Under the pieces are notes generated by a model, which saw only the letters and a list, made by a program, of their open reading frames with translations, was not told where the DNA came from and ran no database searches. This document shows, piece after piece, positions 11,943 to 60,074 of a stretch of 64,000 nucleotides of DNA. The DNA is from a virus: the IMG/VR virus record IMGVR_UViG_3300025849_000010, positions 64,001 to 128,000 of that record, one strand, 5' to 3'. How positions within the stretch are numbered: the first letter of the stretch is position 1; every line of letters begins with the position of its first letter. A program made the position numbers and the translations under genes.

Positions 11943-11961
11943 AATGCGTTCTCCTATACAT

Positions 11962-11967
11962 TATTTA
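11962..11967 (-). promoter_or_regulatory. Putative late promoter TAAATA for the baseplate operon
   Basis: TAAATA on minus strand, followed by an AGGAG RBS and the ATG at 11942. Confidence 0.6.
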
Positions 11968-11968
11968 G

Positions 11969-11997
11969 TTGACTTTATTAACAGAGTATATTATACT
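11969..11997 (+). promoter_or_regulatory. Sigma70-type promoter for gp55
   Basis: TTGACT (11969-11974), 17 nt spacer, TATACT (11992-11997). Confidence 0.75.
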
Positions 11998-12021
11998 AGT
12001 AGTTGAACCCTAGGAGATCCA

Positions 12022-43300: not shown

Positions 43301-46097
43301 AGAAATTAGCGGATCAGACAATCATACACATAACTTAGACTTTGGTAGAAGTTCACAAGGTACGCAGCAAATTGGTAAGGTTGGTGTTAAAGGTCCTATT
43401 ACTGGACAGTTTAACGTTAACGGTTCGGTATTAGAACTAACGCCAGGCGCCGGTACAGGTTCGGGACAAGGTGCTAAAGTTAACATTTACGGTTCAAATA
43501 GTATCGGTTCTGGTAGTGGCATACAAAGTAGTGAACTAATTGCAAGTTTCTCAGGAGACGCTATTAGACTAAACAAAGATGTTATTACACAAGCAACTAG
43601 CTTAGGCACAAATCAATCAACATTTGATCTTGTTAATGATACTGCAACAACACTTAATATTGGTGGCGCTGCAACAGCTATTGACATCGGTGCATCAAGT
43701 GGTTACTTGCACGTTAACTCCGCTGACCAAGCAGTTAGTACTACAACAGGTGCGCTACGTGTAGACGGAGGCGGTAGTTTTGGTAAGAACTTGTATGTTG
43801 GTGGTAACTTAGTTGCTGCTGAACTTACACTAACTGGTGCTATTGATGGTAACAGTTACAATGTAGGCGGTATTGAAGTAATTGACACTAACAGACGCTT
43901 TATTTCAAGCGGTGGCACAACTGGTGAACTTTCAAAAGTACACGGCATTAGCTTTGACTGGGACGGCAACTACGGCGCAGTCGGCGGTTATGTAAACCAT
44001 GGTATTAGTTCACGTAACGAAACTTGGGGAGCTAACGATAGTTTAAGTATTAACTCGTACAACAATGTTAACGTAAGACTTGATACTAACTCTAACAATG
44101 CTGCTGCAAGTACATTCTTCCGCATTAACAATGACGTAAGTCAAACTAATGGTAACATTGTACTAAGTGCAAGAGGCGACGGCAAGGTTGGTATTAACAA
44201 AGATCCAAGCGGTACTTACAACTTAGATGTTGGCGGTAGCTTTAATGCTACAACTGGTTACATTAACGGTGGTGCAATTTGGACTGACGCTAATGACGGT
44301 GATGGCTCAGGCTTAAACGCAGACTTGCTAGACGGCTTACATGCATCCAGCTTCCTACGTGTTGATACTGGTGCTGCATTTAGTGGTGGTGTATTTAAGA
44401 TTAGTGCTCCTGCAACAACAATTCAAAACACTGGCGAAGTTAACACATTACAGTTATATCAAGGCAACGGTGCTAATAGTTACGATGCATTTATGACATT
44501 CCATATTGGCGGTGACTATGCTGTACACTTTGGTTTAGATGGAAGTACAAACGATCTAGCATACGGCGGTTGGTCAGCTGGTGCAGTTGCACATAAAGTA
44601 TGGCACGCTGGTAATGATGGTAGTGGCAGTGGACTTGATGCAGACTTGTTAGATGGACAAGATAGTGCATTCTTCCGTAACGCAAGTAATATTAATGCTG
44701 GTACTTTCCCAGATAGATTTAGTAGTAGCGAACGTTACAACATTGGATTTATTGACGGTTACGGCGGCGATAGCTACGACAAACTGCGTGTATGGAATAG
44801 TGGTTCGTACTCAATAGGTATGCACAGTGGCCAAACAATGGGTTGGCTAAACGACTATGCTATGACATTCACAATGAATAACGATAGTGATCGTGGCTTT
44901 AAATGGCGTCATGAAAGTGATGGTGTTGCTGATGGTGCTATGGCACTTACAACAGATGGTCGTTTAACAGTTAAGCAGTTCATCTCAGTAGGTAATCAAA
45001 CTACACGTTACCTAAGAGAACCAACAGGTAACTACGGTTCGATTCAGATTAGCGGTAGTGGATTTGGTAACTGGGAAGGCTTTAGCATTGACGGTCGTGC
45101 AGTATTCATGCATGACGGTGGCACTGCAACTGGTATCTTCAACGATGTAGATAACGAATGGTTGTTCTACGGTGTACACAACGCACAAACTGAAATGATG
45201 CATAATGGTAGTTGGAAAGTTCAAACACGTTCCAATGGTGCAAACATTGCAGGCGAGCTATATGTTGATAACTGGGTACGCATTGAAAGCAATTCAGGTA
45301 TTTACTGGGAAGGTGGCAACTATGCTGGATGGCACATTTATCCACAAGCAACTAACAGAATCCACATGCGTTCAGCTAACAGCGGAAGTTGTGAAGTTTC
45401 TCTTGCTAACAGTGCAAACACTATCTATGGTAGATTATATGCAGATGATGCATCACAAGGCTTCCTAAACGAAGATGGCAACTGGGCACTACGTAGCTAC
45501 AACAACGACGGTGTTTCACCTGGTTGGAGATTCTACGAAAACGGTAACGAAAGCTGGACAGGCAACCCAGGTAATGACGTTGGTAAGATTGAATATCACG
45601 CTAACAGATTCTACATTGCATCAGGTGCTAACTCCGATCGTGTTGTACAGTTTAGACGTGATGGAACAGATGTTTCATACGTTGATAACAGTGGTGTTTA
45701 CCAAGGTACTGCTGCAAGTGCTAACTGGGCTGACTTGGCAGAGAAATACTTAGCTGACGAAGTTTACGCACACGGTACTGTACTTGCTATTGGTGGCGAT
45801 GCTGAAGTTACATTGTTCAAACCAGGCATGAAACTAGCAGGCGTTGTTTCAACACAGCCGGGCTTGATGATGAACCAAACAGACGATAACAGAGATGATC
45901 CGATGTGGCCGTTCGTTGCACTTAAAGGTCGTGTACCAGTTATGATTAATGGTTCAGCTAAGAAAGGCCAGTATATCATTGCAGATCAAGACGGTAAAGG
46001 TCGTGCTGTAGACGAACTAAGTACTATAGCAGAATACACTTTATTAATTGGTACTGCATTAGAAGATGGTACAGATGTAGTTGAAGTGAAGGTATAA
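34335..46097 (+). CDS. Giant (3920 aa) tail fibre/structural protein
   Basis: N-terminal LDLGEIAINTADGKMF attachment motif; seven CxRD repeats; HG(L/F)xxG modules; DGxGSGLxADLLDG fibre repeats; C-terminal ADLAEKY...GVVST.P...VALKGRVPV chaperone-like domain; TAAATA at 34292-34297. Confidence 0.85.
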   Translation: MANKILHKRNNVSGQEPLAEQLDLGEIAINTADGKMFIKQSDGSIKDVTQQIEKGDTRVVVNDQGNGVVTMEVDGIEKLRVDGTKVYVSDDLEIDDQGSIKLKELGQFGSSSVNIKAPPELEESYDIILPDTDARKGQILQNLGFGQTKWSDPGSLGGNRVYVSAEYGDDTNDGRTGAVKTIKRAAQIASDGIFTPVVDPGESAYAAKDLLEVNRTFLQTEVLNFSTKAFNITYDQAKCERDVGLIIDAIENDLRFGGDAATSHAGAAYSLESSALVKQAQDVATSYGLQRARDLAKSVVTNTPIIDTTQVAVAQQFDGTKTATASEAATVESLGQKVVDFYDNGVGEAPNETQTQDVGLLNAETLIDNNKTFIQNEVIAFLNNKYSGFSFDAAKCSRDTGYIVDAANFDLLYSGNAESHYAGITYLNATASLVRSDQKQETLAGIDYARSLAEKVVLGQQVDYLYQTTVAQNTELTPGTQTEATTVFNNISKVYSILNNGIGTANGVVTTDAGKLNSETLIDQNQDFIKEEVIGYLTTTYPGFSYDQNKCRRDVGYILDAISYDLTHGGNNESIQAALAYYQWTAKDAVNLQLAETRAGITYAIDLAKLVIVNQDPATSYQGIFAQFKDAGNPGDATSQTILTGLGSLIDDIITDGDSTTIGLDIDPNNSVPSAVQDTVNANAILAANKEFIQAEVVAFIEENFGNFNYDPVACERDVGLIVDAVKFDIEHGGDAESIFAGISYYNNVTTGTGEITGDAIEVLRKQLQPTLDAVEYARDLLANVVLQNAVSNLYQSGTTQTFDGTNPSTTSVAQTVFNRANTILTILKNGLGTTNSFTKTTGIGALNTEALLQANTAFLQEEVLGYINNQYPGLTYDQASCRRDVELIVDAIAYDLTHGGNTNSIAAGTAYYRQAAALVVTGQSTETLAGLVHLKELAQKVVRNVTVDVTYSATPQVFDGANPGDVTSANTVGTLADIVIDIVDDGLSPYINITANGALTTDQDILDAGALIASNKLFIQKEVVAYVDGSWINFSSNYNQTTCSRDVGLILDAINFDLTWGGTSNAVAAGIAYFKQSSQLTLQRQLVQTIDGIMHAIRLAQQVVENYPVVSFQNTAAQVTDNLNPGSAEAITKIAELGALIEDIVIDGASATAGVTIFGNGIVPNSNIAVQNAADLIALNRSFIQAEVVSYINTYFTNFTYDTDFCYRDVGLFIDAIQYDLIFGGNERAIEAGKSYYIGNTIVIPGQEFQTVLANRYFQSLVDNILQNIVNKKLYQNVTGQITDPTKIVDGTTLGIVEAEFNTIVDIIENGPTSPNIPTEVEGAFNISYTTIMVSTGEYKEDNPVIIPDYVSIVGDNLRTTIIRPLNANQDIFRIRNGAYLLGVTFKDGLDAFNVPSFTGRYCTAFDDPFDTGVDRTGYIGLRDRPLITQSPYIQNVSIISFLGLSGCLVDGSKVITPNVPRFAIEAENPVFGETPEQGKSMVANAYTMLSFGGIGWRLTNDAYAQIVSCFQIFLGNGCWCQSGAYLSVTNSATNFGLYALRSSGYSANSFVFDRGVIAEVGAQASQQKLITVGTKRTPVNQFVIRLYDDDEYNNLANDITNSFKTIPNIVYFNAGELGELYGDAANYEVVAVGSTTFTVQIGSGKNLGSWVEGGTVDINGAFNPAAVLSASYNNTNGALEIEVTTLPNIGDIVTLTTLTFDGTNYPVNEEGSLSLEDNTITIPGHGLVTGDALTYRRNGNIEINGFADQGLYYVEVLTDDIIRLYQDDSRGFVADIIDVSTGQHYFETQTEEFFIDDIILDADSNKLTHNKYQVLTLAPGTYNFEPGDTIEATTGVYRNKAFVYTYEAATRQLTVSVEKADNSGSLTRIFFDATSIIDRDSSAIPQSNIPVTGFTSRTDLFTAEFTIDPTIVGGVLTNTGALKGTFIRLHRPSIVNSSSHTWEYAGSGTDYNALPQNGGITREEFEQFSDLPGRVYSSGTNELGDFKVGDFIVAENRTGNITFKNTVTVGELSALKLAVSDVVIEAISTDPGLGDNEPGGATDTRLITQNAARSFLANRLGDFIDKNVSTNSVSGAVPQMNAQGLLNSDIIPATRNFSLFTTDKKFGRFNLTDDIPAQEPLQGDIAQERYSRTFFTLSAPIALNEDDVIIELNTGATAIVDEDNGGAATVYLANIEGTFSNNISGNVLNVRGSNTTTYITNTGSSEVRDIQYTMVQDSSSQFLRYLPSGAAFVNGQTITAANSKTQGVITGQVEGVALALDLGNISTGNGYVPSTGSQTYKGVVLSNVSGTGTGAIADISVTNGKVTNVDLTRGGSGYAVGNALTATVDQLGGQNTQDFQVSILGVDNRVFVELLAGKFVATTSSNDYTEDGNAVVTTVPLGNTTLTAFNADTIGNGGNVDYPTSRITINSHIFDNGDVVNYASSPNPAIGGFIQGESYFVKVVDANTIELYNRYDLNAANKVIFTSSSTGTHAFIINYVDTRKDRIYAQDHGFTNGQAFRFVGANPPTGMASGGYYYAGTVSQNTFSVHEFQQDAENSVNGVTQGAINFIQTGSGSADFIHQNITIYGEVNTSGNVETNWALTGSANVDASNIVSGVISTSRLAAVGTANSDTYLKGDSSWDYATRTVRTALNSPLNITGNFYTSGGQNFYFKNTQFDIDRTDGTLGNQSFTNLGVAAFSKAQFNVNSGEVELKAGVLDAGTLDGLDSQYFLDPGNLLNPVPVSRGGTQIDQYIAGDMIYATSPTTLNRLPIGSQGAVMVVDELGNPAWSNDVAPFVEDTNNFGVSRPLEIRHDVTNTPAVGIGVGMQFQVETANNNREVGGTIDAVASDVTFGSEDFSFKFNLMAAGFLAERMVLDSLGNLAIDGDLNVDGGDIKTTKTSATVYDTTVTSLSIGRAATSVTIGADKTGELRVRNATLVVGGDSIETQPVDAKIKAPNSLGTNKQGPDLTIQGGASTGSGVAGSVFIDTGASGSSGSTSNTQVNRVEISGSDNHTHNLDFGRSSQGTQQIGKVGVKGPITGQFNVNGSVLELTPGAGTGSGQGAKVNIYGSNSIGSGSGIQSSELIASFSGDAIRLNKDVITQATSLGTNQSTFDLVNDTATTLNIGGAATAIDIGASSGYLHVNSADQAVSTTTGALRVDGGGSFGKNLYVGGNLVAAELTLTGAIDGNSYNVGGIEVIDTNRRFISSGGTTGELSKVHGISFDWDGNYGAVGGYVNHGISSRNETWGANDSLSINSYNNVNVRLDTNSNNAAASTFFRINNDVSQTNGNIVLSARGDGKVGINKDPSGTYNLDVGGSFNATTGYINGGAIWTDANDGDGSGLNADLLDGLHASSFLRVDTGAAFSGGVFKISAPATTIQNTGEVNTLQLYQGNGANSYDAFMTFHIGGDYAVHFGLDGSTNDLAYGGWSAGAVAHKVWHAGNDGSGSGLDADLLDGQDSAFFRNASNINAGTFPDRFSSSERYNIGFIDGYGGDSYDKLRVWNSGSYSIGMHSGQTMGWLNDYAMTFTMNNDSDRGFKWRHESDGVADGAMALTTDGRLTVKQFISVGNQTTRYLREPTGNYGSIQISGSGFGNWEGFSIDGRAVFMHDGGTATGIFNDVDNEWLFYGVHNAQTEMMHNGSWKVQTRSNGANIAGELYVDNWVRIESNSGIYWEGGNYAGWHIYPQATNRIHMRSANSGSCEVSLANSANTIYGRLYADDASQGFLNEDGNWALRSYNNDGVSPGWRFYENGNESWTGNPGNDVGKIEYHANRFYIASGANSDRVVQFRRDGTDVSYVDNSGVYQGTAASANWADLAEKYLADEVYAHGTVLAIGGDAEVTLFKPGMKLAGVVSTQPGLMMNQTDDNRDDPMWPFVALKGRVPVMINGSAKKGQYIIADQDGKGRAVDELSTIAEYTLLIGTALEDGTDVVEVKV
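34950..38280 (+). repeat. Seven tandem ~155-167 aa protein repeats with invariant CxRD
   Basis: Cys codons at 35049, 35520, 35985, 36477, 36978, 37464, 37953 (residues 239, 396, 551, 715, 882, 1044, 1207). Outer boundaries approximate. Confidence 0.9.
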
Positions 46098-46100
46098 TTT

Positions 46101-46475
46101 ATGGGAAACATGACAAGAGCCTCGGCAAGAGATTACTTTACCGGAAATGCCGGGGCTCAGTTACGAGGATTTGACAAAACTATTAACTTTGCTGCTACAG
46201 TGTATGTTACAGGAAACGTGGACGGTGGCCGTGCTGGAACTGCATATGGTAATAGACGTTATGAATACGTAAATGCACCTAACAGTGATTACAACGGAAA
46301 TGTTTATCCAAATACTACACAAGTAGATGCAACCCAATTAATTGATCAAGCACTTGATGCAATACAACGAACTTGCGATTTAATTGAAGGTCGTATTAGC
46401 AATAGTTACTTTGATTGGAGAATATGTCACGCAAGTTGTCATTATAGCTGCCACGGATCAAGAGGGAGAAGATAA
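46101..46475 (+). CDS. Putative radical-SAM substrate protein A, C-terminal (CHxS)3-RGRR
   Basis: Ends WRICHASCHYSCHGSRGRR; starts 3 nt after the fibre stop; paralog of the next gene. Confidence 0.75.
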   Translation: MGNMTRASARDYFTGNAGAQLRGFDKTINFAATVYVTGNVDGGRAGTAYGNRRYEYVNAPNSDYNGNVYPNTTQVDATQLIDQALDAIQRTCDLIEGRISNSYFDWRICHASCHYSCHGSRGRR

Positions 46476-46647
46476 TGGCAGGATTAAGTCATGCACAATT
46501 AGAAGCTCGGTACTATGGTAATGCATATACAAGAATACGCACATTTGATAAAACTATTAACGTAGCAGCTACAGTATATTATGCGCGATATAATGGTAGT
46601 GGCCAAGGAACTGCATATGGTAATAGACGTTATGAATACGTAAATGC
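46236..46647 (+). repeat. 41 bp exact direct repeat shared by the two substrate genes (46236-46276 and 46607-46647)
   Basis: ggaactgcatatggtaatagacgttatgaatacgtaaatgc occurs in both; encodes GTAYGNRRYEYVNA. Confidence 0.9.
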
Positions 46648-46858
46648 CGGGCAAGGTGCCTTTGCTAATACAGATATTCCAAATGGTGTAGGTGACAATT
46701 TATTAATAAGAGCAGGTGATATACAAACATTTGCTTCAAATGCAATCAGCAGAACAGTAAATGGCATAGAAGGAAGAATTACAAATTCGTATTTCGACTT
46801 TAGAATATGCCATTCAAGTTGCCATTATAGCTGCCACGGCAGCAGAGGGAGAAGATAA
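46475..46858 (+). CDS. Putative radical-SAM substrate protein B, C-terminal (CHxS)3-RGRR
   Basis: Ends FRICHSSCHYSCHGSRGRR; TAATG overlap with the previous gene. Confidence 0.75.
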   Translation: MAGLSHAQLEARYYGNAYTRIRTFDKTINVAATVYYARYNGSGQGTAYGNRRYEYVNAGQGAFANTDIPNGVGDNLLIRAGDIQTFASNAISRTVNGIEGRITNSYFDFRICHSSCHYSCHGSRGRR

Positions 46859-47920
46859 ATGATAGGCGAAAGTTTTTACTATATCAGTAATAAAAAATAC
46901 TTAGGACGATCTACTGCAATGCTTTCGGCATTATCAGAAAGTCCGTGGAGCGGAGTTCAATCAAGACGTATTAGCATAATAATGCCAGATGGACATAGTG
47001 CAGTGCAAGAAAGTTATGCATCGTCGTTAAGTAATGATTATCCATTAGCAAACGCTGAAGATATGATAACATTTGCTAATTATAGCGATATTGATTCTTG
47101 GGAATATCTCAATAACAATACTAAGGAATTTTTATTATTTGAATCAGCGCATGAGTTTTTGAAGATGTATGCAAAGTATACAGCTTCGCTATTAAAAACA
47201 ACAACTAACAAAGATGTTAAACAAGTTGTTAAGGAATTTATTGTATTAGCAACTACTAGAGATGTAACATACTCGACAATGGGCGATTACAATGAAGGCG
47301 ATATCAATGCAGCAGTAGAGGAAGTATTTGCAGAAAACGTATTCTATGATATTCCTAATGCAACCAGTAAGCACTGGGGTTACGATATTCTTTTCTTTAT
47401 TAATGACAAGTACAATGAAAATGAAACCTATGCAGAAATTAATGTAACAACAACTGCATTTTTAAGAGAAAAGTTTACAGTACATAGTGATAAAATGATT
47501 CATGAAGTTATTAGTATGTTACAATCTAAAATTGGTTATGTAAGTGTTATTAACAATATTATTGATTGGTTTAATAATAACGGAAATACAGAATGGAATA
47601 GAGCTGAGTTTGTGAAAGATGTATTTCAAAATACGAATCGCATGCAAGCACTATACAGATTACGTGACTTTTGGAACGATGTAGGTTCTAATAAAGAATT
47701 AATGACATTAATTGACGGGCATGACGAATGGGAATACGAAGAAGTATATAAAGAGTTTGCTAGAACTATTCCAATTGTCATACAAATTGCAGAGGGCGGA
47801 TTTAATTTTGCAAATAACGAAGCACTAAGAAGTGCATGGAGCGAGGTAGAGTTTTTCTATAAACGTAAAAGTCGTATTCCTTATTTGCTGTTTAAAATAT
47901 TACCACTTGTACCGGAGTAA
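46859..47920 (+). CDS. Hypothetical protein in the radical-SAM cluster
   Basis: 353 aa ORF abutting substrate B; no motif recognised. Confidence 0.7.
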   Translation: MIGESFYYISNKKYLGRSTAMLSALSESPWSGVQSRRISIIMPDGHSAVQESYASSLSNDYPLANAEDMITFANYSDIDSWEYLNNNTKEFLLFESAHEFLKMYAKYTASLLKTTTNKDVKQVVKEFIVLATTRDVTYSTMGDYNEGDINAAVEEVFAENVFYDIPNATSKHWGYDILFFINDKYNENETYAEINVTTTAFLREKFTVHSDKMIHEVISMLQSKIGYVSVINNIIDWFNNNGNTEWNRAEFVKDVFQNTNRMQALYRLRDFWNDVGSNKELMTLIDGHDEWEYEEVYKEFARTIPIVIQIAEGGFNFANNEALRSAWSEVEFFYKRKSRIPYLLFKILPLVPE

Positions 47921-47922
47921 AA

Positions 47923-48630
47923 ATGACACAAGAAAATTACACACTGCCACTAAGTCCAACAGATTTAGCAGAAATATATAAAATAAAAACAAGCTCGGAA
48001 GATTACGTTCTCAAGGTTGATTATTTTAAAAGTAAGGAAGTACTGTCAGTAAAACATATACTCGTATATATTGCTAACACTAACTTTAAAGTACAGTTTG
48101 AAGGCATTGACGATGAATTAATAAATGAATATATAATTTCTAATTTTATGGTTGATTGTCCGTTACTTTCTAGATACATTACGTTAATTGCTAAACGTAA
48201 ACTAGGACAGGAATATAATCAAGTTGACCAAGCATTAAATACTATAATGTCTGATGCTGACATTGATTCATATTTAGAAAAGAATGGCGAATTATTTGAC
48301 GACTTGTTAGATAAACTAAAACATGTTACACTGTTTTGTTTAGATCAAGCTGGCAAATATGCCGACAAGTACAAAGAATTTATACCAGAAGAGATTGAAC
48401 GTGCAGATGAAGAAACTCAAATTGGACTAAATATTGTATATATTGCAACATACTCGTTGGACTTGTTGTATTTGTTAGGTAATAAATTTGGTCCGTGGCC
48501 TACTAATAAATTAAATGTTAGAGTGTTTAATGATGTTAGTAAGTATCAAGGAGCAGACCTATATAATACATTACTAAAATATGGTGTTGCAACTAGTATG
48601 TTAGAATTATTTGACGAGGAATCAGCATAA
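47923..48630 (+). CDS. Hypothetical protein in the radical-SAM cluster
   Basis: 235 aa ORF with TAATG overlap to the first radical-SAM gene; no motif recognised. Confidence 0.7.
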   Translation: MTQENYTLPLSPTDLAEIYKIKTSSEDYVLKVDYFKSKEVLSVKHILVYIANTNFKVQFEGIDDELINEYIISNFMVDCPLLSRYITLIAKRKLGQEYNQVDQALNTIMSDADIDSYLEKNGELFDDLLDKLKHVTLFCLDQAGKYADKYKEFIPEEIERADEETQIGLNIVYIATYSLDLLYLLGNKFGPWPTNKLNVRVFNDVSKYQGADLYNTLLKYGVATSMLELFDEESA

Positions 48631-49811
48631 TGACAATGCAACAATCATATTGTAAACAGATGAAGTATAGTGGGCCAGAAAGTCTACCTCCTTCACACGC
48701 CCAGAAGTTTGACGTATTAATTAACTTTGAAGGCCTTACTGGCTGCGAATATGGTTGTTTAGGATGTTTTGTTAACAAGAATCAAGACGTTACTACAATG
48801 AATCAAATGCTAACAACTGCAAAAGAACTTGCAGATGGTGTAAAGCGTACAGGTTTAAACTTACGTGAGTTTGTTGTAGGTCCGACAGATTTATTCTCTG
48901 CGTCAAATACTGATAGCATTCTTAATAATACTATTATACAAGATATAATGCGCGAACACACTAATGCACGTATTGCTACACCTAGTAAGATAGACGGCGT
49001 GAGCATGGAAAGGTTGCGAGAAGTATTTGCAATACTTGATGATCCTTCTAAGTATAGAGACGAAATGATCATTGAGTTTATTATGCCAGTTGGCGATGTT
49101 GATCGTATACTAAATGACGAAGAATACTTTAAAGATATTAAATCAAAATTAGAATTCTTTAAATCCGAAACTCCCAAGAAAATTGACTGGAGTTGGACAT
49201 TACAAGCAAGTAATGTTATGCAAAAACATCTAACTAAAGAAAACTATAATAAACTGCTATATAAGATTCTTGATGAATATGAAACTATTCTAGAAATGAA
49301 CCCAGCGTTCTCTAGAGCACCGAGTGTATTGCACCAGCGTAAGAACTTAGTAGCATGGAATAACTTCCTAAAAGAAGTAGTAGATCAAGACAATTTTAAA
49401 GACGTTACAATGAGTATGGCTAACTTATATTGTAACTCCATGAACTTCATAGGGTTAACTGTTGTTCCTGGATTAGAGACGCCACGTGTATTTTTAAATG
49501 TAATGTTACACGAACAAGCATTCTTTACACAGCATAGGGATTTAGAAGTAACAGGACTAAGTTTTGAAGAAATTCTAGTCAAGAGGGATCACTTAATAGC
49601 ACAAGGGTTAGCTAAGTCGTCTAAAGTTAAGGATTGTGCAGATTGCAAATATGCAGTAGCATGTGCAAACAGACTAATATTCCAAGCACAAGATGCAATG
49701 AACATGCACGAATGTTTAATGCCGCTAGAAGTATTAGAACTGTATAATCCGTTTGTTACTAGTAACGAACAGTGGAACGACGATGCTTTAAAAATCGTCA
49801 ATGCTCGTTAA
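48630..49811 (+). CDS. Divergent radical-SAM protein 1 (GPTD type)
   Basis: CEYGCLGC; VVGPTD; C-terminal CADCKYAVAC...C. Confidence 0.8.
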   Translation: MTMQQSYCKQMKYSGPESLPPSHAQKFDVLINFEGLTGCEYGCLGCFVNKNQDVTTMNQMLTTAKELADGVKRTGLNLREFVVGPTDLFSASNTDSILNNTIIQDIMREHTNARIATPSKIDGVSMERLREVFAILDDPSKYRDEMIIEFIMPVGDVDRILNDEEYFKDIKSKLEFFKSETPKKIDWSWTLQASNVMQKHLTKENYNKLLYKILDEYETILEMNPAFSRAPSVLHQRKNLVAWNNFLKEVVDQDNFKDVTMSMANLYCNSMNFIGLTVVPGLETPRVFLNVMLHEQAFFTQHRDLEVTGLSFEEILVKRDHLIAQGLAKSSKVKDCADCKYAVACANRLIFQAQDAMNMHECLMPLEVLELYNPFVTSNEQWNDDALKIVNAR

Positions 49812-50829
49812 CCTAAACTCAACTCCTACAGGATTTAACAATTATATAGAAGGCATAAGCCCTAAGGATAATAACTTTCTTAGGACAGAAGTTCATGCTG
49901 ATATATTACATGGATGCAGTCAAAAGTGTCCAGGGTGTTTCATTCCTAGAAAAAATCTTACTAATGCTGATCATCTTACAACACTATGCGATATATTGGA
50001 ATCTAGTGCATATACACCTGATGATGTTGTAATAGGTCCTACTGATATATTTGATGCTGAAAACTTTTGGGACTTAATGGACCATCCTAGTATGAAACGT
50101 TTATACAGTATTGCAGCACTAAGTTTTAACTCAACACTACTACAGGACTACGACACTGTACTTGCCAAACACACTAAGATTTGGAGTCTTTACGAAGGAT
50201 TGGATCGTACGCCTGATATAGATTTTAAAATAGTACTTGATATTACTAGATATTTACAAGGCGATATTGAAGACATGTGTCGCAAACTAGAACTTTTTAA
50301 ACAAGGTAGTGTACAGTTTAGAGTAAACTATTACCCGGGTATATTTGATCGTGTGAGCTATAATGATTTATGTGATATGATTAAAGAAGACTTCAATGCT
50401 CCAGTAGTTATATTGCCAGGTTTCTTAACAGACAGAAATAGTCGAGGTAAAGTTAGTAAATTACTTCCGATGTTTTTAGACGAGCTACGTAAACAAGATA
50501 TAAGACCCGAATACAAACAGTTATACACGATGTTTGATGCAAACTTTAATAGTCACGGATGTACCAATTATAGTTTTTACAACGGCAGCTTGTATATGAA
50601 TCCATTTGTGTTTGACGGAATATTGCAGCGTACACAAGAATTTAAAGTAGACAATCTTAATACTAAAAACTTTTTAGCTGAAAATTTATCATATGCAGCA
50701 TCTACTAAAGAATGTGAAAGTTGCGAATACTTAATGAGCTGTGCAGAGCGCAATGTATTGTTCTATATGAAGTCGAGAAATTTAACAGAGTGTGTTACAG
50801 TAAAGGAGTATACAAATGCCGGTCATTAA
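49801..50829 (+). CDS. Divergent radical-SAM protein 2 (GPTD type)
   Basis: CSQKCPGC; VIGPTD; CESCEYLMSC...C. Confidence 0.8.
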   Translation: MLVNLNSTPTGFNNYIEGISPKDNNFLRTEVHADILHGCSQKCPGCFIPRKNLTNADHLTTLCDILESSAYTPDDVVIGPTDIFDAENFWDLMDHPSMKRLYSIAALSFNSTLLQDYDTVLAKHTKIWSLYEGLDRTPDIDFKIVLDITRYLQGDIEDMCRKLELFKQGSVQFRVNYYPGIFDRVSYNDLCDMIKEDFNAPVVILPGFLTDRNSRGKVSKLLPMFLDELRKQDIRPEYKQLYTMFDANFNSHGCTNYSFYNGSLYMNPFVFDGILQRTQEFKVDNLNTKNFLAENLSYAASTKECESCEYLMSCAERNVLFYMKSRNLTECVTVKEYTNAGH

Positions 50830-53072: not shown

Positions 53073-54193
53073 AAAATGATTGGCAAACTTATCTGCAAAA
53101 TAATAAACAATCTCTTTCACCAGAGGGGTTTATAGATCCTGCTGATCAAAACAAGATAAAAATTCAGTTAATGCTTGAAATATTAGAAGGTTGTGCTTAC
53201 AACTGTTCGGGCTGTTTTGTTAAAAGACGAAAAAACTTTGGACAGGGATTAGGGCTAGACTATGCTGCACAACTTGTTGACGAGTTAACTGATCAATATG
53301 TATTAGATGATATTATTGTAGGACCTACTGATTTCTTCTCCAGCGGAAATATAATACAAGTCTTAGAAGATCCTAGATTTAAAAAGATAGTAAACGCATT
53401 ACCCGAAGACGGCGGACTACAGCATAACTGTTCAATAGACTTTTTTATAGGAAATGATCGAGTAAAAGAAATTATTACTTATATTGAAAATAGCTATCTA
53501 AAGGATCGTCCGTTTGATGTACAAATTGCAGTAGACTTGCATATGTTAGATAATCCACATGTACACGATTTAATAAGTGAACGCCTAGAAGCTATGGAAA
53601 ATAGTTCTGTAGAATATGAAGTAAGCCTGCTGTGTAATATAACTCAAGACATTGACGACGATGTATTAGACAAAATTGAAACTGTTAGAAACAAGTGGAA
53701 TACTGTTGTTGAATGGGGGCCTAGTTTAGTACGTGCCATGACAAATAGGCCTGATAAAATGTTAGGTATGATACAAGGATGGAATGAAAGTATAGGAAAG
53801 GTTGCTAGCATAGATGAAAAGCGTTTTACACAAAACTTTATATGGCAACAGAGCGATACTAGTCATAAAAACTTTAATGAAGTAATTGTTACAGTTAATA
53901 ATGACCAGTTATATATAGTTCCGTTTTTATATGAAAATTCTCCTATATATCATCCTAGTTTCGAAGTACCGATAGGCGAAAATATATTAAACAGTATTTT
54001 TGATAAAAGGCACGAATTGCAATTAACACAATATGCTAACATTCCTAACTTAGTATGCAACGGATGTAAGTATGTAGAAAATTGTAGCTCTAGATTAATA
54101 CCAACGCTAATCACAGATGTAGTTAAGCATAACCAGTGTCTAATAAATAAAAACATAATGGCATTATACGACAATATAGGATATAATAAATGA
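53066..54193 (+). CDS. Divergent radical-SAM protein 5 (GPTD type)
   Basis: CAYNCSGC; IVGPTD; CNGCKYVENC...C. Confidence 0.8.
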   Translation: MLKNDWQTYLQNNKQSLSPEGFIDPADQNKIKIQLMLEILEGCAYNCSGCFVKRRKNFGQGLGLDYAAQLVDELTDQYVLDDIIVGPTDFFSSGNIIQVLEDPRFKKIVNALPEDGGLQHNCSIDFFIGNDRVKEIITYIENSYLKDRPFDVQIAVDLHMLDNPHVHDLISERLEAMENSSVEYEVSLLCNITQDIDDDVLDKIETVRNKWNTVVEWGPSLVRAMTNRPDKMLGMIQGWNESIGKVASIDEKRFTQNFIWQQSDTSHKNFNEVIVTVNNDQLYIVPFLYENSPIYHPSFEVPIGENILNSIFDKRHELQLTQYANIPNLVCNGCKYVENCSSRLIPTLITDVVKHNQCLINKNIMALYDNIGYNK

Positions 54194-55398
54194 GCTGCGG
54201 AACAGAAATACTAAAAGCATTAATGCCGGATAACATTACTGATGATCACTTGTTGGACACAAAGGCACAGCAAGAAGCAAATGCAGTAACACACGCAATA
54301 TTAGAGCGTAAGCGTCCTCTTATTGGCGAAATTGAAATAACACTTTTTGAAAACTGTCCTATTAATTGCGACTTTTGCTTCCATGATAAAGAAAGCGAAG
54401 TAGGCATGACATATGAAGAAATGCTAATGAAACTTCCTCTGGTAGAAGCACACTGTAAAAAGATGCAGGGCAAAGTACATGCTATGCAGTTTAATATGGT
54501 AGGTGGAGAGCTGTTTCAAGACCGTGCAAAAGATACACTGTATCCTATGTTTTTTGATTTAATGGTAGAAATTAAAAAAATAACAGATAGGTACGGACAC
54601 GTTATACAAGTAGTTTGGGTTAGTAACTTTTTGTTTAAGTATCACGAAGATGTACGCAAACTGCTAGACGATCTAAATGCAGTAGACATACCAAGTAAAC
54701 TGATTGCTAGTTATGATCTAAGTGGACGTCCTACAGGCGGACAATACACTAAAAATATCGAACGTTTTAAAGATTATATTTCTACTATCAATTTAGTAGC
54801 AACAACAGACAGTATCAATGCATTGTTTGCAGGAGATGATTATTTCAATTATCTATATGAAAACTTTGATTTGTTCTTTGATGATTTTATTCCAGATCCG
54901 GGATACGACCATTTAGTACCAGCTGATTCGCTTTACTTAAAGTTTATGAAATACATTGCTGATAATTATCCAGAAGTAAATCCGTATAAAGAACTTATAG
55001 AAAATGATGTTAATCAAATGCATTGTATGAGCTTAAACAAGTTAACTATTTTTCCGGATAACACAACTGCAAATTGCCGTTGGCATCGTTATACACGCAA
55101 TGATTTTCAACACGCATATATTAGAAAAGACAACACTAACCTCATGCAAGCATACATGGACGAAGTTGGTTGTTTAAGTTGTCAATATTTTGATCGTTGC
55201 GGCTTCCGTTGTTATACGCAATGGGACTGGAAGAATCGTGCTAGGGATTTACCACCTGGCATTTGTCCTATAAAAGAGTTCTTTAATTATGTAGGGGATA
55301 CTGATCAAACATCATCTCTTCCTCATAATAAGACCTTACGTCGGGCACCATTCCCGTCTGAGATGAAGGATCAGGAAGGCTTATATGGTCGAGAATAG
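54190..55398 (+). CDS. Radical-SAM/SPASM-type protein 6
   Basis: CPINCDFC; VGGELF; C-terminal CLSCQYFDRCGFRC...ICP. Confidence 0.88.
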   Translation: MSCGTEILKALMPDNITDDHLLDTKAQQEANAVTHAILERKRPLIGEIEITLFENCPINCDFCFHDKESEVGMTYEEMLMKLPLVEAHCKKMQGKVHAMQFNMVGGELFQDRAKDTLYPMFFDLMVEIKKITDRYGHVIQVVWVSNFLFKYHEDVRKLLDDLNAVDIPSKLIASYDLSGRPTGGQYTKNIERFKDYISTINLVATTDSINALFAGDDYFNYLYENFDLFFDDFIPDPGYDHLVPADSLYLKFMKYIADNYPEVNPYKELIENDVNQMHCMSLNKLTIFPDNTTANCRWHRYTRNDFQHAYIRKDNTNLMQAYMDEVGCLSCQYFDRCGFRCYTQWDWKNRARDLPPGICPIKEFFNYVGDTDQTSSLPHNKTLRRAPFPSEMKDQEGLYGRE

Positions 55399-55702
55399 CA
55401 TTGTAAGTTTCTTTATCTTCGCTATAGGGTTTAAAGTACGGATCATTGCCGGCTAATAAATCTTTATCATCTAGTAGCTCGTAGAAATCGTATTTAAAAT
55501 CTAAACTTATCCAATAAGCATAACAGATTGCTACGAAATAACTTTTAGCAGGATACACCCATTCGTCTACACGTTCGTAGAAATGTTTCACTGCCCAAAT
55601 AACACTGTCTTCTTCTGTACGAATGTCGACTTTGTTTAAGTCGTCAGTAAATTCTGTTGCAGTACTATTAAATAGTTGTAATCTAGTCTTCCAGTTCAGC
55701 AT
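55283..55702 (-). CDS. Hypothetical protein in the radical-SAM cluster
   Basis: 139 aa; start overlaps the end of the upstream minus-strand radical-SAM gene; aromatic/acidic composition. Confidence 0.7.
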   Translation of the reverse strand: MLNWKTRLQLFNSTATEFTDDLNKVDIRTEEDSVIWAVKHFYERVDEWVYPAKSYFVAICYAYWISLDFKYDFYELLDDKDLLAGNDPYFKPYSEDKETYNAILDHISLPDPSSQTGMVPDVRSYYEEEMMFDQYPLHN

Positions 55703-56600
55703 ACCAGTCTATTAGTCCCTTATATCCATTACAGCCGTTGTTTAAGTCTTTAACATATCGATAATGTTCAGTTAAGCATTTACCGTAGTATTTACAATTA
55801 TGACATATTTCACTGACGTTTTCTGTAGACTCTTTTGAAGCCCACAACAAGTATTCGTCAAACGTATTATATTCTTCAAAAAACTCATTATCGTTCTTGT
55901 CAAATTCAAGCACACCGAATTTAGCATCAGGCGTAATGTATACATGATCGTTACTAAATGCATTACGATTGCCTTCTAATACATCTTCTAAATCATCTAC
56001 GTTAACAAAATCAAACTGCTTTAATACAGGAGATTCTATCCATTGCTGCACATGTTGTTCAAAATCTCTATGTGTAACAGGGTGTGCATTTGCTTGATTA
56101 GTTGAGTAAGGTTTTATTTCTACACACTTAACATTTTGCATCATATTAAATGTATTAATCATTAAGTCTACATTAGTAGCTAATACCTTAGGACTTGCTA
56201 AAACTAGTACACTAATATCCTTAGGAAAAAGCATCATATTCTGTAATACTTTATCACTTTGTTCTCGAGCTTCGAAGTCATAGCTTACACTAATATGCAC
56301 ATCATCATCTAAAAAGAAATCAGGCCTTGCACTTAAATTAGTATTGATGTTAATTCTACCACTAAAATATTTTCTAATAACAGTTTTCAAACTATAAAAA
56401 TATTCTTTATCTAGCATACCTATTTCGCCACCGTATAAATCTACGTGTGTAATCGGTACAGACACTTCACTAAGACGCTTGTCTAGATCTTCCGGAGTAA
56501 TACGCTTTTTATTACCTAGTTGGGCTGTAGTAAGATAACAAAAGTCGCAGCGAAAGTTACAAAAATATGTAGGATTGATACTAACAGTAAATTCAGTCAT
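55683..56600 (-). CDS. Radical-SAM protein 7 with C-terminal Cys cluster
   Basis: CNFRCDFC; YGGE; CHNCKYYGKC...GC. Confidence 0.88.
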   Translation of the reverse strand: MTEFTVSINPTYFCNFRCDFCYLTTAQLGNKKRITPEDLDKRLSEVSVPITHVDLYGGEIGMLDKEYFYSLKTVIRKYFSGRININTNLSARPDFFLDDDVHISVSYDFEAREQSDKVLQNMMLFPKDISVLVLASPKVLATNVDLMINTFNMMQNVKCVEIKPYSTNQANAHPVTHRDFEQHVQQWIESPVLKQFDFVNVDDLEDVLEGNRNAFSNDHVYITPDAKFGVLEFDKNDNEFFEEYNTFDEYLLWASKESTENVSEICHNCKYYGKCLTEHYRYVKDLNNGCNGYKGLIDWYAELED

Positions 56601-57627
56601 ATTCCCTCACATAAGGAGTAACGCTATCAGGGTCTTGATTATTCAACTTTAAAATAGTTGGAGCAAGTTGTTTCATTTCAAAACAATGTTCTTCTACTTG
56701 ACCTTCACGCTTGTGATCTCTAACAGTTTTACGACAGCCGTTACATATTCTAAACATAGGACACGTTAGGCATGCCTGCTTCATTGAAATTAGTTCTGGC
56801 GCATCTTGCAACGGTGTACTAAATCCTCCTGACATTTCATATTCAAAGTCGATAGGATAATCTTTGTCGTCACCTAAACTACCGCAACTATAATAGTCGC
56901 CGCCTGGATTGAACGCACGTATGCCTTCGTCACAATGTCTGTTTTGAGGACAAGTAGTTGTATCACTTTGTAGCCTACGAACCATTTGTTGTGTATTGTA
57001 TTCCCAGTCCATTAGTCCAGCGTTGTAAATATCAATGTATGCTTTATATATTTTACTAAGACGATATGTATAGCCCTGCTCGCCGCTTGCCATTGCATAG
57101 TTTACTTTGCAAACTACATTCATCTTTTTAGCAAGCTCTACTGTTTTAATAATAGTATGCTCGTTCATGTCGTCAATAACAGCAATAAACTCAGGACGAT
57201 AACCACAAAGTTCTAACATTTTATCTGATACTTTCCAGAAGTCTTCTTCTGTAAATATTGAAAAGTCACCTTTAAGTCTACCAGCACCGTATTGAAAACT
57301 AGTCGAGATTCCCATACGTGGGTGATTGAATAAATCTATCCACTTTTCGGGTTTAACGTAAAACGGCCATAAGTTGCTAGTAAAGCTAATAGTTGCCGGC
57401 ATATCGTGTGTATCGAGATATTCTATTATTTTCCAATAATATTCTGGAGACATCATGAGTGGATCACCACCGTTAACAATAATTGTATTAGTGTCGGGAT
57501 ATCTATCTAAAAATCTAAAGATATAATCGTGATCTAATTGTCCTGCATTATTAGGATCGATCTTAGTCGAAGAACAAAATGTACATTTGAAGTTACATGC
57601 TTCAGTGGGTTTAATAATAAGATCCAT
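56593..57627 (-). CDS. Radical-SAM/SPASM protein 8
   Basis: IKPTEACNFKCTFC; NGGDP; CPQNRHC...YYSC...CLTCPMFRICNGC...HC. Confidence 0.9.
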   Translation of the reverse strand: MDLIIKPTEACNFKCTFCSSTKIDPNNAGQLDHDYIFRFLDRYPDTNTIIVNGGDPLMMSPEYYWKIIEYLDTHDMPATISFTSNLWPFYVKPEKWIDLFNHPRMGISTSFQYGAGRLKGDFSIFTEEDFWKVSDKMLELCGYRPEFIAVIDDMNEHTIIKTVELAKKMNVVCKVNYAMASGEQGYTYRLSKIYKAYIDIYNAGLMDWEYNTQQMVRRLQSDTTTCPQNRHCDEGIRAFNPGGDYYSCGSLGDDKDYPIDFEYEMSGGFSTPLQDAPELISMKQACLTCPMFRICNGCRKTVRDHKREGQVEEHCFEMKQLAPTILKLNNQDPDSVTPYVREYD

Positions 57628-58655
57628 TACGGCGCTAACTCCAACATTAGTGTTTTAGGAGCAGGACATATATCGCCTTCCCATGCAAGTTTGTAACAAT
57701 CGCCACCGCAGTAAAACTGCACAGGACATTCATAACATTTAGAATTTCTATTCATTTCAGTTGCAATATTACACATTCGACTTGGATGAAATAATACATG
57801 ATCTATGTCATCAGAAATGTGTGCATAGTGTGCAGTTGGCGCACTATTGGGACAACCTGCAATGCGACCGTCTGCATTTATAGTAAACAGTTTTTGTTCA
57901 CAGTCTCTACAGAATGTACTTGCACGAGTAATGCCATCCTCAAACTTCATATATACACTTTCAATTGTAGAGTTGTATATTTTATCTCTAAGATTTCTTG
58001 CTTGTGTTTCCTTGTGCAACTGTAAGTACCAATCTTGTATTTCTATATTAGTAGGAAATATCTTAGGATTGCGCACAGCATTGCCGTCTGAAGTTAATCT
58101 TTCAAAGTCAACTTCTTGTATACCTAAGTCGATCAAATATTCGATAACATCTGCAGGATTTTCTTGTATCATATCTTTACTTAAACTAACAAAACACTTG
58201 ATGTCTACTCCATCTGCTGTTAGTTGACGCACATTATCTTCCCATAGTTTTTGCTGTTTAGCATTAGCCCAACGTATAAACGGATCGTAACTTGTACCTA
58301 AACGTTTGTGTAGTATTCCGTATATTAGATCAAGTTTCTCGTCTGTAAGTTTATATGTTAAGTTAGTGGTCATGCCGTAGTAAGCTCTGTCACCCCAAAC
58401 ATCATAAGTCAGTTTGTGAAACAGTTTCATATCTTCTACGGGTGCAAGCATAGGTTCACCGCCGTGGAACTCGAAAGCTATTCCGCTATTGGGCATTTTA
58501 GCATACAGTCTATTAAAAAAATCTGCTGTAGCACGGGGATCAAAATAAATCTTACGTCCGTTGATGCCATTAGTAAAACAATGAGAACAGTTTAAATTAC
58601 AAGTCTCAGTTGTTTTAATATAAGACATATACTGTGTGGCGTTATGTACGGTCAT
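57627..58655 (-). CDS. Radical-SAM/SPASM protein 9 (anSME/peptide-maturase-like)
   Basis: IKTTETCNLNCSHC; FHGGEP; CRDC...DGRIAGC...CYECPVQFYCGGDC...ICP. Confidence 0.92.
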   Translation of the reverse strand: MTVHNATQYMSYIKTTETCNLNCSHCFTNGINGRKIYFDPRATADFFNRLYAKMPNSGIAFEFHGGEPMLAPVEDMKLFHKLTYDVWGDRAYYGMTTNLTYKLTDEKLDLIYGILHKRLGTSYDPFIRWANAKQQKLWEDNVRQLTADGVDIKCFVSLSKDMIQENPADVIEYLIDLGIQEVDFERLTSDGNAVRNPKIFPTNIEIQDWYLQLHKETQARNLRDKIYNSTIESVYMKFEDGITRASTFCRDCEQKLFTINADGRIAGCPNSAPTAHYAHISDDIDHVLFHPSRMCNIATEMNRNSKCYECPVQFYCGGDCYKLAWEGDICPAPKTLMLELAP

Positions 58656-59100
58656 CTAATCCCCAAGATAGCATAATGCTATTGTCTTTATTTAAAGCAC
58701 GGTGCGGTGTTTCTGCAGGCACAAACAAGCAATGTCCACTGTGTGCTGTTATCTCTGTACCGTTTATTTCTAATGTTTTACTTCCATGAGTAACTTGCAA
58801 TACTAAGTCTACAGGATCGGTGTGAATACCGAATGATGGAGAATTAGGCTTTGCGTAGAACACATGACAAGTACCATTATTAAAATTACAAATCTGTTCA
58901 TACTTTTCTAATTTAATTGTTATATCATCACGCAGCAAAAGATTATCTACTACTCCGAGATATGAAATATAATCATTTTCGGTTATATAATGTTGTAAGC
59001 CTTCACTGTCAATGTAGCTAGTCATTACTCTATTATATGCTAAGTCACTGCGGAGTATATCATAAAACTCTAACATTGACATTTTAACTTTAGGAATCAT
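58642..59100 (-). CDS. JmjC/cupin-type Fe(II)/2OG hydroxylase
   Basis: HVFYA..NSPSFGIHTDPVDLVLQVTHGSK...LFVPAETPHRA gives an HxD...H triad, as in Cupin_4/YcfD-type protein hydroxylases. Likely start ATG 59100. Confidence 0.78.
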   Translation of the reverse strand: MIPKVKMSMLEFYDILRSDLAYNRVMTSYIDSEGLQHYITENDYISYLGVVDNLLLRDDITIKLEKYEQICNFNNGTCHVFYAKPNSPSFGIHTDPVDLVLQVTHGSKTLEINGTEITAHSGHCLFVPAETPHRALNKDNSIMLSWGLDDRT

Positions 59101-59101
59101 A

Positions 59102-59632
59102 TCAACACCACACGTCAAACGGCATGCAAATTCGCATGTCTTTTACAGTCTCGACATTGTGCCAAACAAAGCTAGGAAATATAAACAAATCACCAGCCTG
59201 AGGCTTTAATACAACAGGTTCAAATATATGATTTAAGTTACTGTTGTAACCTCTATTAGCATTACCTCTAGGATCGTGTAATACTAGTTCTCCGCCTACA
59301 GGAGGAGTTGCAAGATAAAGTATTCCAGTAAACTGACTTCCTAAGTGGTTGTGTATATGATGTGTTGCACCTTGTCTATAAACATGTACCCACCAGCTAA
59401 AAGAAAATGATTTCTGTTTTGGAAAGTCTGATTCTAAATAAGATTTAATAGAATTGTCAATAAACTCGTGTGCTAATTTTAATTCTGAATACTCGTCAAT
59501 ATCAGGACGCTCGTGATCACTTATACCATCAGGAAACTTCATGATAATATCGTTAACTACATTGCCTAACGCAATTTGATCATCCCACGTAAACTGTGCA
59601 AGTGTAGTAGGCCAAAGTTCATTAAGTATCAT
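59102..59632 (-). CDS. 2OG-Fe(II) oxygenase superfamily protein
   Basis: WVHVY..GATHHIHNH..SQFTGILYL...LVLHDPR...GDLFIFPSFVWHNV...RI. Confidence 0.85.
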   Translation of the reverse strand: MILNELWPTTLAQFTWDDQIALGNVVNDIIMKFPDGISDHERPDIDEYSELKLAHEFIDNSIKSYLESDFPKQKSFSFSWWVHVYRQGATHHIHNHLGSQFTGILYLATPPVGGELVLHDPRGNANRGYNSNLNHIFEPVVLKPQAGDLFIFPSFVWHNVETVKDMRICMPFDVWC

Positions 59633-60074
59633 TGTGATCCTCTATGTATTGCAAAACGTCAACTGCCGTCATGACTTTAGTCTTTATTGTAGCATTGTTT
59701 AATGTATTTCGCAACCCCTGATGTAAGGGTTTTGGCCAATTTCCAAATGTAACCCAACAGTAACCTGAGTGTTCGTCATTTAACAACGGAATAAATTCGT
59801 CATTTACAAAACATAGATATGTATGAAAATTAAACTTTTCATCATTTGATACAAATAGCTCTAATGGGATAACTTTAGCAAAAGAAGGAAGTTTGCCTAA
59901 TTCTTCGGTTATCTCTCGTTGTAGACCTTCCCAAGGAGTTTCGCCATATTCATTTTTGCCGCCTACTAGTCCCCAGTGCTCAGGCTGTTTAACATGAGTT
60001 CGTTGTAATAGTAATACACGTTTAGTTTTAAGGGAACAAATCAGAGCTCCACTACAAATTATTTTCTCGGACAT
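59622..60074 (-). CDS. NUDIX hydrolase
   Basis: Nudix box GGKNEYGETPWEGLQREITEELG. Confidence 0.9.
   Translation of the reverse strand: MSEKIICSGALICSLKTKRVLLLQRTHVKQPEHWGLVGGKNEYGETPWEGLQREITEELGKLPSFAKVIPLELFVSNDEKFNFHTYLCFVNDEFIPLLNDEHSGYCWVTFGNWPKPLHQGLRNTLNNATIKTKVMTAVDVLQYIEDHNDT

Follow-up and report, generated by a model that had tools for sequence, protein, structure and literature searches.

Two adjacent open reading frames (ORFs) of a viral genome fragment, here called ORF A and ORF B, were analysed together with the radical-SAM genes that accompany them. The fragment, referred to as the window, comprises 64,000 nucleotides (positions 64,001 to 128,000 of IMG/VR record IMGVR_UViG_3300025849_000010), and coordinates are given within it. 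ORF A (46101..46475, plus strand) encodes 124 amino acids (aa) and has orthologues in 14 related contigs; ORF B (46475..46858, plus strand) encodes 127 aa. The two proteins are paralogues with 52% identity, and each ends in a short tail rich in Cys and His, after which this family is called the tail proteins below. The tail of ORF A, preceded by WRI, reads CHAS-CHYS-CHGS-RGRR and occupies the last 16 codons (46425..46472, plus strand; pattern match and invariant alignment columns). That of ORF B, preceded by FRI, reads CHSS-CHYS-CHGS-RGRR (46808..46855, plus strand; pattern match and alignment). Together the tails hold six of the seven Cys and six of the seven His residues of ORF A and ORF B. 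Also common to both proteins are the motifs RxFDKTINxAATVY, GTAYGNRRYEYVNA and IEGRIxNSYFD. The back-translated tail motif was found twice in the window, against 0.00 occurrences expected (100 shuffles). ORF calls and alignment confirmed both ORFs as first described in a sequence-only reading, with their tails, their concentration of Cys and His and their shared motifs. The tail module is real, strongly selected and widespread, and it is placed here in phage virion biology as a set of radical-SAM enzymes with a putative C-terminal repeat substrate.

Gene spacing around the pair is tight. The gene for a fibre-like protein of 3920 aa (34335-46097, plus strand) lies directly upstream, its stop separated from ORF A by 3 nucleotides (nt); the ORF A stop and the ORF B start share 1 nt; and a conserved gene, U353 (46859..47920, plus strand; 353 aa), starts right after the ORF B stop. 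An exact 41-nt identity (46236-46276 and 46607-46647), which encodes GTAYGNRRYEYVNA, was also found between the two genes, whose products are otherwise 52% identical. In the tandem tail-gene pairs of other loci, the longest common word is 10-51 nt and its position is variable. The 41-nt identity and these variable shared words suggest sporadic gene conversion between tandem copies.

The bodies of the tail proteins fall into two families that BLAST does not link, a short type (124-140 aa, like those of the window) and a long type (170-292 aa), with a few singletons. Profile comparison joins the two only through the last ~95 columns. A protein search returned 18 homologues, and in their alignment with ORF A (19 sequences) the tail was invariant while the remainder varied. 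When 28 short-type homologues were aligned, down to 29% identity and including a distant clade from viral contigs (29-38% identity), 18 columns were invariant, 13 of them the C, H and S of the three repeats and the RGRR. The sequence-only reading had hinged on conservation of the tail among homologues, and this was what the 28 sequences showed. In the long-type proteins (33-44 sequences) the tail is the only invariant part, at a mean column identity of 19-23%.

A DNA-pattern scan for (CHxS)3RGRR had matches on at least 118 viral contigs; the 140 ORFs obtained, 120-300 aa long, all end exactly in the motif. The pattern was unable to encode N, Q or D at the fourth repeat position, and the apparent constancy of Ser there is partly due to this exclusion. 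Loci were also re-sampled by enzyme gene, without selection on the tail motif. In this enzyme-anchored sample Cys and His were fixed, and the fourth position was Ser in ~89% of cases and otherwise N, Q or D. The core repeat as first read was thus upheld for the tail and its Cys and His; strict Ser at the fourth position was not. Cys was found at positions -16, -12 and -8 in 42 of 42 tails of enzyme-anchored loci, and in 140 of 140 motif-selected ORFs, where the search pattern demanded that spacing. RGRR is occasionally RSRR, and the last repeat is CHSA in one isolate. One lineage carries a degenerate middle repeat in a 229-aa tail protein (CHYS-CFTSS-CHFS-RGRR, one His replaced) whose gene lies after the enzyme gene. 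The bodies contain a mean of 0.36 Cys per 152 aa. The motif is encoded by 100 distinct DNA sequences, with Ser written as both AGY and TCN and Arg as both AGR and CGN. These switches of codon family indicate that selection acts on the amino acids. By the alignments and codon counts, the tail is a real, deeply conserved unit under protein-level selection.

The enzyme genes of the window lie downstream of U353 and of a second conserved gene, U235 (47923..48630, plus strand; 235 aa, an ORF call kept in related loci). U353 had no Pfam, NCBIfam or Atlas match. Five tandem paralogues of an atypical radical-SAM-like type follow on the plus strand (48630-49811, 49801-50829, 50816-51997, 51978-53072 and 53066-54193; phrog_31457) and are homologous to ORF071 of the cultured jumbo phage RSL2. 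Their CxxxCxGC and GPTD motifs and four C-terminal Cys residues were invariant in 33 sequences, and a search of the PDB with their profile gave no meaningful match. In RSL2 the annotated start of ORF071 drops the radical-SAM motif, and GCQFNCKGCH is in frame upstream of the annotated ATG (locus 11900-12200). Midway through its radical-SAM module, RSL2 carries an insertion of two dihydrofolate reductase paralogues, ORF073 and ORF074 (locus 14119-15268; PF00186, expectation value (E) 2e-48 and 1e-17).

Four canonical enzymes of the window are likewise orthologous to RSL2 proteins. A radical-SAM/SPASM enzyme (54190..55398, plus strand) carries CxxxCxxC and CxxCx5Cx3C, matches phrog_1802 (E 3e-24) and is 34% identical to ORF072. 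On the minus strand follow a radical-SAM enzyme (55683..56600) with a Pfam Radical_SAM match of 32.6 bits, above the cutoff, and 44% identity to ORF077, and a radical-SAM/SPASM enzyme (56593..57627) with a Radical_SAM match of 34.1 bits, weak DynA and anSME matches and 59% identity to ORF075. The fourth, rS_57627 (57627..58655, minus strand), is the orthologue of ORF067 and scored 28.7 bits against the SPASM model TIGR04085 (cutoff 27). Across 22 orthologues it retains C19, C23 and C26 (CxxxCxxC), G65-G66-E67 (GGE) and eight further Cys residues. Its closest solved structure is anSME (4k37; full length, E 8e-9), followed by ChlB and CteB. With its cluster motif, GGE and predicted SPASM domain of 7-8 Cys, rS_57627 is assigned to the radical SAM/SPASM superfamily, an enzyme class that fits peptide or protein modification.

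Three further genes on the minus strand belong to this region. A small conserved protein of 139 aa, U139 (55283..55702; phrog_20737), is the orthologue of RSL2 ORF081. A cupin/JmjC-like protein (58642..59118; Cupin_2 and JmjC_2 matches, 30% identity to RSL2 ORF066) lies beside rS_57627 in most loci, and a 2-oxoglutarate (2OG)-Fe(II) oxygenase is encoded at 59102..59632 (PF13759, E 9e-18; phrog_81). A NUDIX hydrolase gene (59622-60074, minus strand; phrog_1198, E 1e-25) abuts the oxygenase gene and closes the minus-strand run, with the tail sheath gene following shortly after it. The remaining parts of the window form a structural region of T4-like type with baseplate wedge and hub, portal, major head protein and tail sheath.

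The C-terminal ~185 aa of the fibre-like protein (45543..46097, plus strand, start approximate) travel with the short-type tail proteins. In the distant clade, the ORF upstream of the tail genes is 58-61% identical to this C-terminus, against 33-43% for the tail proteins themselves. A Peptidase_G2 intramolecular-chaperone-like (IMC) signal in this part was weak and under the cutoff (E 0.0044).

Linkage between tail proteins and enzymes was followed from both sides. Gene order was kept in 14 of 14 related contigs wherever the contig reaches. Motif-selected loci were taken as informative when at least 2.5 kb was present on both sides of the motif, and all 39 contain homologues of the neighbouring radical-SAM families. 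Two architectures were seen. The window type has two short tail proteins followed by U353, U235 and the five atypical paralogues; the single-copy type has the cupin, rS_57627, the tail protein, R070 and the next enzyme. In 60 loci the tail gene is directly preceded by the rS_57627 gene, and the partner enzyme occurs in at least 360 viral contigs. Among GenBank phages, every record with an rS_57627 orthologue (15/15; the RSL2 group, Atu_ph07, Phosso and pPa_SNUABM_DT01, here DT01) carries a tail protein immediately downstream, and a protein like ORF068, the tail protein of RSL2, occurs in exactly the set of 11 records in which a full-length homologue of the atypical enzymes is present. In the enzyme-anchored sample the tail gene was next door in 42 of 80 loci; five of the five 'enzyme-only' contigs tested carried tail genes elsewhere on the contig, and a reversed-pattern control gave 0 matches. 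By these counts the tail proteins and the radical-SAM/SPASM enzymes are strictly co-inherited in both directions, which fits a substrate role.

The linkage survives rearrangement and transfer across unrelated lineages, being found in a T4-like context in the window and in phiKZ-like phages (the RSL2 group and DT01). Among 185,579 prokaryotic species genomes, the motif occurred in only 18 contigs of metagenome-assembled genomes (MAGs), several of them jumbo-phage-sized; the enzymes were near in all 18, and none came from isolates. The bins concerned are assigned to Bdellovibrionota, Rhodobacteraceae, Flavobacteriaceae and even Methanobacteriota, with contigs of 222-382 kb, and these look like jumbo-phage contigs binned with cellular genomes. 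The restriction of prokaryotic matches to MAG contigs and the linkage across lineages mark the module as phage-borne, and its genomic contexts indicate that it has moved as a unit between T4-like and phiKZ-like lineages. The complete module, including two tail genes, was also found in a record of 159,934 bp rated 91% complete, which shows that genomes need not exceed 200 kb to carry it.

The module is present in the cultured jumbo phages RSL2, RSF1, FLC6, Atu_ph07, Phosso and DT01, with hosts in Ralstonia, Burkholderia, Agrobacterium, Sinorhizobium and Pseudomonas. When GenBank phages were searched directly by Megablast (46000-51000) and tblastn (ORF B), no match was obtained, and the isolates were reached only through the enzymes. 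For Atu_ph07 a virion proteome of 131 proteins has been obtained by electrospray ionization tandem mass spectrometry (PMC6102473). The tail protein AUZ94952.1 was identified by mass as gp170 of that list (computed 31.89 kDa, tabulated 31.89 kDa), and neighbouring proteins were mapped in the same way (gp176, 66.07 kDa; gp177, 21.66 kDa). In purified virions gp170 was represented by eight unique peptides with 35% coverage in bands 1-9; it was maximal in gel band 1, at the top, and other proteins of 29-34 kDa peak in bands 7-8 (PMC6102473 Table S5). The adjacent radical-SAM enzyme gp171, the cupin gp172, gp168 and gp169 are not in the virion protein list (PMC6102473 Table S5). From these entries, the Atu_ph07 tail protein is packaged in virions and the mapped neighbouring enzymes are undetected there. 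A homologue from another jumbo phage was thus found among virion proteins, the check that the sequence-only reading had called for.

A 4449-aa 'T4-like structural protein' of Atu_ph07 encoded upstream of the module, gp180 (AUZ94962.1), is absent from the published virion proteome even though gp170 peaks in the top band. The RP31 virion proteome (PMC5468394) was set aside as evidence, RP12 and RP31 not being among the phages with a tail-protein homologue. No proteomics is contained in the FLC6, SURPRISE13 and DT01 papers.

Models of both body types were examined. The AlphaFold2 (AF2) model of the window-type ORF B has a mean predicted local distance difference test (pLDDT) score of 66.5; in it two helices flank a long hairpin, and a low-confidence tail follows. 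The long-type model is of higher confidence (pLDDT 88; predicted template modelling score, pTM, 0.81) and shows an alpha/beta domain of 170 aa whose last strand enters the first Cys; its last ~15 residues are of low confidence. These predictions support an exposed, accessible tail on a folded carrier domain, and they side with the earlier suggestion that the N-terminal part is a folded domain, not a disposable leader. No usable match was obtained for the window-type model in Foldseek PDB, BFVD or VIA-wide, or for the long-type model in Foldseek PDB, VIA-wide (Z<=4.1) or the Atlas (TM<=0.33). A Protein Atlas feature search of ORF B gave only MobA-like noise below 0.9. The JGI label 'expansin (peptidoglycan-binding protein)' on one homologue was discarded, as it lacks Pfam support. 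A complex prediction of rS_57627, with three 4Fe-4S clusters and S-adenosylmethionine, against the last 43 residues of ORF B scored 0.02 in a run without controls and is given no weight on either side of the question of binding.

The explanation favoured here, with a probability of about 0.6, is that the co-inherited radical-SAM/SPASM and oxygenase enzymes act on the invariant tail as their substrate and that their product becomes part of the virion. ORF A and ORF B would be paralogous folded proteins associated with the phage particle, and their C-terminal (Cys-His-x-Ser/Asn)x3-Arg-Gly/Ser-Arg-Arg would be the substrate of a dedicated, phage-encoded modification set. This set would consist of four canonical radical-SAM/SPASM enzymes, one to five atypical radical-SAM-like enzymes, the cupin/JmjC-like protein and one or more 2OG-Fe(II) oxygenases. 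The enzymes may act late in infection on the flexible tail that follows a beta-strand of the folded domain, installing covalent changes on Cys, His or Ser side chains. Three chemistries are candidates. His-to-C-beta three-residue cyclophanes are proposed because H-x-S/N/D/Q fits the cyclophane motif known for His (HtkB, HaaB; PMC11499958). Cys thioethers are proposed because the period-four Cys recalls thioether-forming SPASM systems, and Cys oxidation of the anSME type is suggested by the last C-x-x-x-R unit together with an anSME-like enzyme. The mature protein would then be built into the virion, probably with the giant fibre or whisker protein encoded upstream, the only link to the fibre C-terminus being conserved gene adjacency.

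A more specific version, in which the radical-SAM enzymes make the Cys/His tail reactive or cross-linked and the tail protein is thereby bonded covalently to another copy of itself or to the giant fibre/whisker protein, is considered unlikely. If true, it would be the first radical-SAM chemistry to stitch a virus particle together, and its signature would be the peak of the 32-kDa gp170 at the top of a sodium dodecyl sulfate gel even though the sample had been boiled. The loading buffer described for Atu_ph07 contained no reductant (PMC6102473), so the gp170 at the top of the gel may represent disulfide-linked multimers and not enzymatic cross-links.

This last point weighs against the substrate explanation, as do several others. 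The link between the tail and the enzymes is genomic only. In the window-type arrangement a distance of 7-11 kb separates the four canonical enzymes from the tail genes and three of the four are encoded on the opposite strand, which makes adjacency weaker than in single-copy loci. Nine enzymes exceed the obvious need of six CHxS units, and some may serve other substrates, such as the giant fibre. Every enzyme falls far under the curated cutoff of any characterised maturase family. The virion evidence concerns a long-type homologue whose similarity to the window proteins is confined to the tail region, the model of the window type is only moderately confident (pLDDT 66.5), and a Cys3His3 tail could simply bind metal.

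Metal binding was weighed as an explanation of its own, namely an unmodified metal or Fe-S site (Cys3His3 per chain, possibly inter-chain) on a structural protein, with the radical-SAM enzymes modifying another target, for example the giant fibre. Phage fibres and spikes often carry axial His/Cys metal sites, as in the HxH iron sites of T4 gp37 and in PAAR and gp5.4 tips. Such a site would agree with Cys and His being the only strictly invariant side chains, with a fourth position that tolerates N, Q, D or A and with bodies that are nearly free of Cys (mean 0.36 in 152 aa). It gives no account, however, of why tail protein and enzymes are never found apart, of the 60 loci in which the rS_57627 and tail genes abut, or of the fixed three repeats and invariant RG/SRR, and it is regarded as rather improbable. 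Helper proteins for the enzymes, acting as electron donor or Fe-S carrier and not as substrate, would also explain a Cys/His tail: radical-SAM enzymes depend on a reductant and on being loaded with clusters, and a cluster might be held by the tail. Against such a role, the Atu_ph07 homologue is packaged and the mappable neighbouring enzymes are undetected in virions, and the high variability of the N-domains contrasts with the conservation of the enzymes; this possibility was rated extremely low.

Two other explanations start from known peptide systems. A phage-borne analogue of HxsA, whose basic HxS tail would bind DNA or envelope as the genome enters, for instance so as to keep out competing phages or counteract the HXS defence of the host, draws on the fact that the phage tail likewise ends in HxS followed by basic residues and that HxsA is folded, DNA-binding and matured by radical-SAM enzymes (PMC13128918). 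No HxsA, HxsB, HxsC or HxsD profile was significant or at cutoff, profile searches found no peptidoglycan-binding domain in the tail proteins, the genes belong to a structural operon instead of a defence island, and virions contain the homologue. This analogue was judged very unlikely. Still less was expected of a classical RiPP (a peptide synthesized ribosomally and then modified post-translationally), in which an N-terminal leader is cleaved and the modified peptide of 16 residues is set free to act as a toxin or signal. The core is at the C-terminus as in RiPP precursors, and SPASM-type enzymes adjoin; but no protease or exporter was recognisable in profile searches of the module proteins, the 170-aa N-domain is confidently folded, and a full-size protein was recovered from virions at 35% coverage.

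In earlier work, the presence of six to nine radical-SAM genes inside giant-phage structural operons was called "highly unusual" (PMC12390700), and radical-SAM clusters of giant phages were attributed to DNA repair or metabolism (PMC8541153). The FLC6, SURPRISE13, DT01 and 332-Vera papers mention radical-SAM genes only as unusual accessory genes. In the literature library searched, no paper was found that names the tail protein or proposes a substrate for phage radical-SAM clusters. A candidate substrate is now identified in a virion-associated protein family with a 16-residue Cys/His tail, conserved like an active site, and the cultured phages that carry the module make experiments possible straight away. 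If the tail is modified, RiPP-type radical chemistry would extend to virus particle maturation, probably with a new cross-link or cofactor, and the module would form a phage-side counterpart to bacterial HXS defence.

The module was compared with described maturation systems. PapB and CteB (ranthipeptide/sactipeptide) resemble it in that SPASM enzymes make Cys thioethers in repeated short motifs (C-x3-D in the case of PapB), and PapB was the top NCBIfam match of rS_57627 (42.9 bits, cutoff 340); the phage tail, in contrast to PapB substrates, has no acidic acceptor at +4. QhpD makes Cys thioethers on QhpC, which is a subunit of a protein complex and not a disposable peptide. To our knowledge, a phage virion context has not been described for enzymes of the PapB, CteB or QhpD type. 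anSME (4k37) acts on Cys or Ser of a folded protein in C/S-x-P/A-x-R, and the last phage repeat, C-H-(G/S/T/A/N)-(S/N/A)-R, similarly has Arg at +4. The phage repeats differ in that +2 is usually Gly, Ser or Thr (Ala in 3/140 and Pro in 0/140 motif-selected ORFs), the first two repeats are without Arg and there is no sulfatase fold; the anSME profile TIGR03942 gave 42.1 bits against a cutoff of 349. A cluster protease that removes a leader, as in classical RiPPs, was not recognised among the protein families of the module, and the N-domain is folded.

The triceptide maturases HaaB and HtkB are radical-SAM/SPASM enzymes that link His C2 to the C-beta of the third residue (PMC11499958). H-x-S/N/D/Q, present three times in the tail, fits the aromatic-X-X3 motif, and the tolerated swaps of S to N, D or Q are as expected of an acceptor position. 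The invariant Cys, on the other hand, is not part of triceptide motifs, and the putative phage substrate is a folded virion protein. Cyclophane maturase profiles scored below their cutoffs (FxsB 29.5 vs 370, YhhB 33.3 vs 445, AmcB 25.7 vs 425), with GrrM also far below.

The sequence-only reading had described the core as a hybrid of the His-Xaa-Ser and CXXX-repeat families, and membership of neither was borne out. With the CXXX-repeat system (TIGR04115) the tail shares a C-terminal repeat in which Cys recurs strictly at every fourth residue, and a radical-SAM enzyme encoded nearby; it differs in that the number of repeats is fixed at three and His is invariant. The TIGR04115 maturase profile reached 29.9 bits against a cutoff of 350, over residues 14-70 only, which is the N-terminal cluster region. 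For the His-Xaa-Ser family, three tandem HxS units are present in each tail. The HxsA profile (TIGR03979) had no NCBIfam match at E<=1 for ORF A, ORF B, RSL2 ORF068, the Atu_ph07 tail protein or L114, and HxsD had no match for U353, U235, U139 or RSL2 ORF069/070. HxsB reached at best 33.5 bits (cutoff 370) and HxsC 22.8 bits (cutoff 267.9), both confined to the N-terminal cluster region.

HXS itself is a bacterial anti-phage system composed of the effector HxsA, the radical-SAM enzymes HxsB and HxsC, and HxsD (PMC13128918). HxsA is folded, binds DNA and carries HxS repeats with many basic residues; two radical-SAM enzymes mature it, and its modification, the nature of which is still unresolved, appears as +8 Da on the last repeat, SHRSS (PMC13128918). 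As in HXS, the phage module pairs a folded protein, not a short peptide, carrying tandem HxS repeats near basic residues with several adjacent radical-SAM genes. The phage tails differ in having exactly three repeats, an invariant Cys before each His and a position at the extreme C-terminus followed by RG/SRR, and the phage proteins are without a signal or processing region, a peptidoglycan-binding domain or HxsD. HXS is moreover a bacterial system, whereas the phage module is located in structural operons and has a virion protein as its product. HXS is the closest described system, and the phage module is similar to it in working but is not a member.

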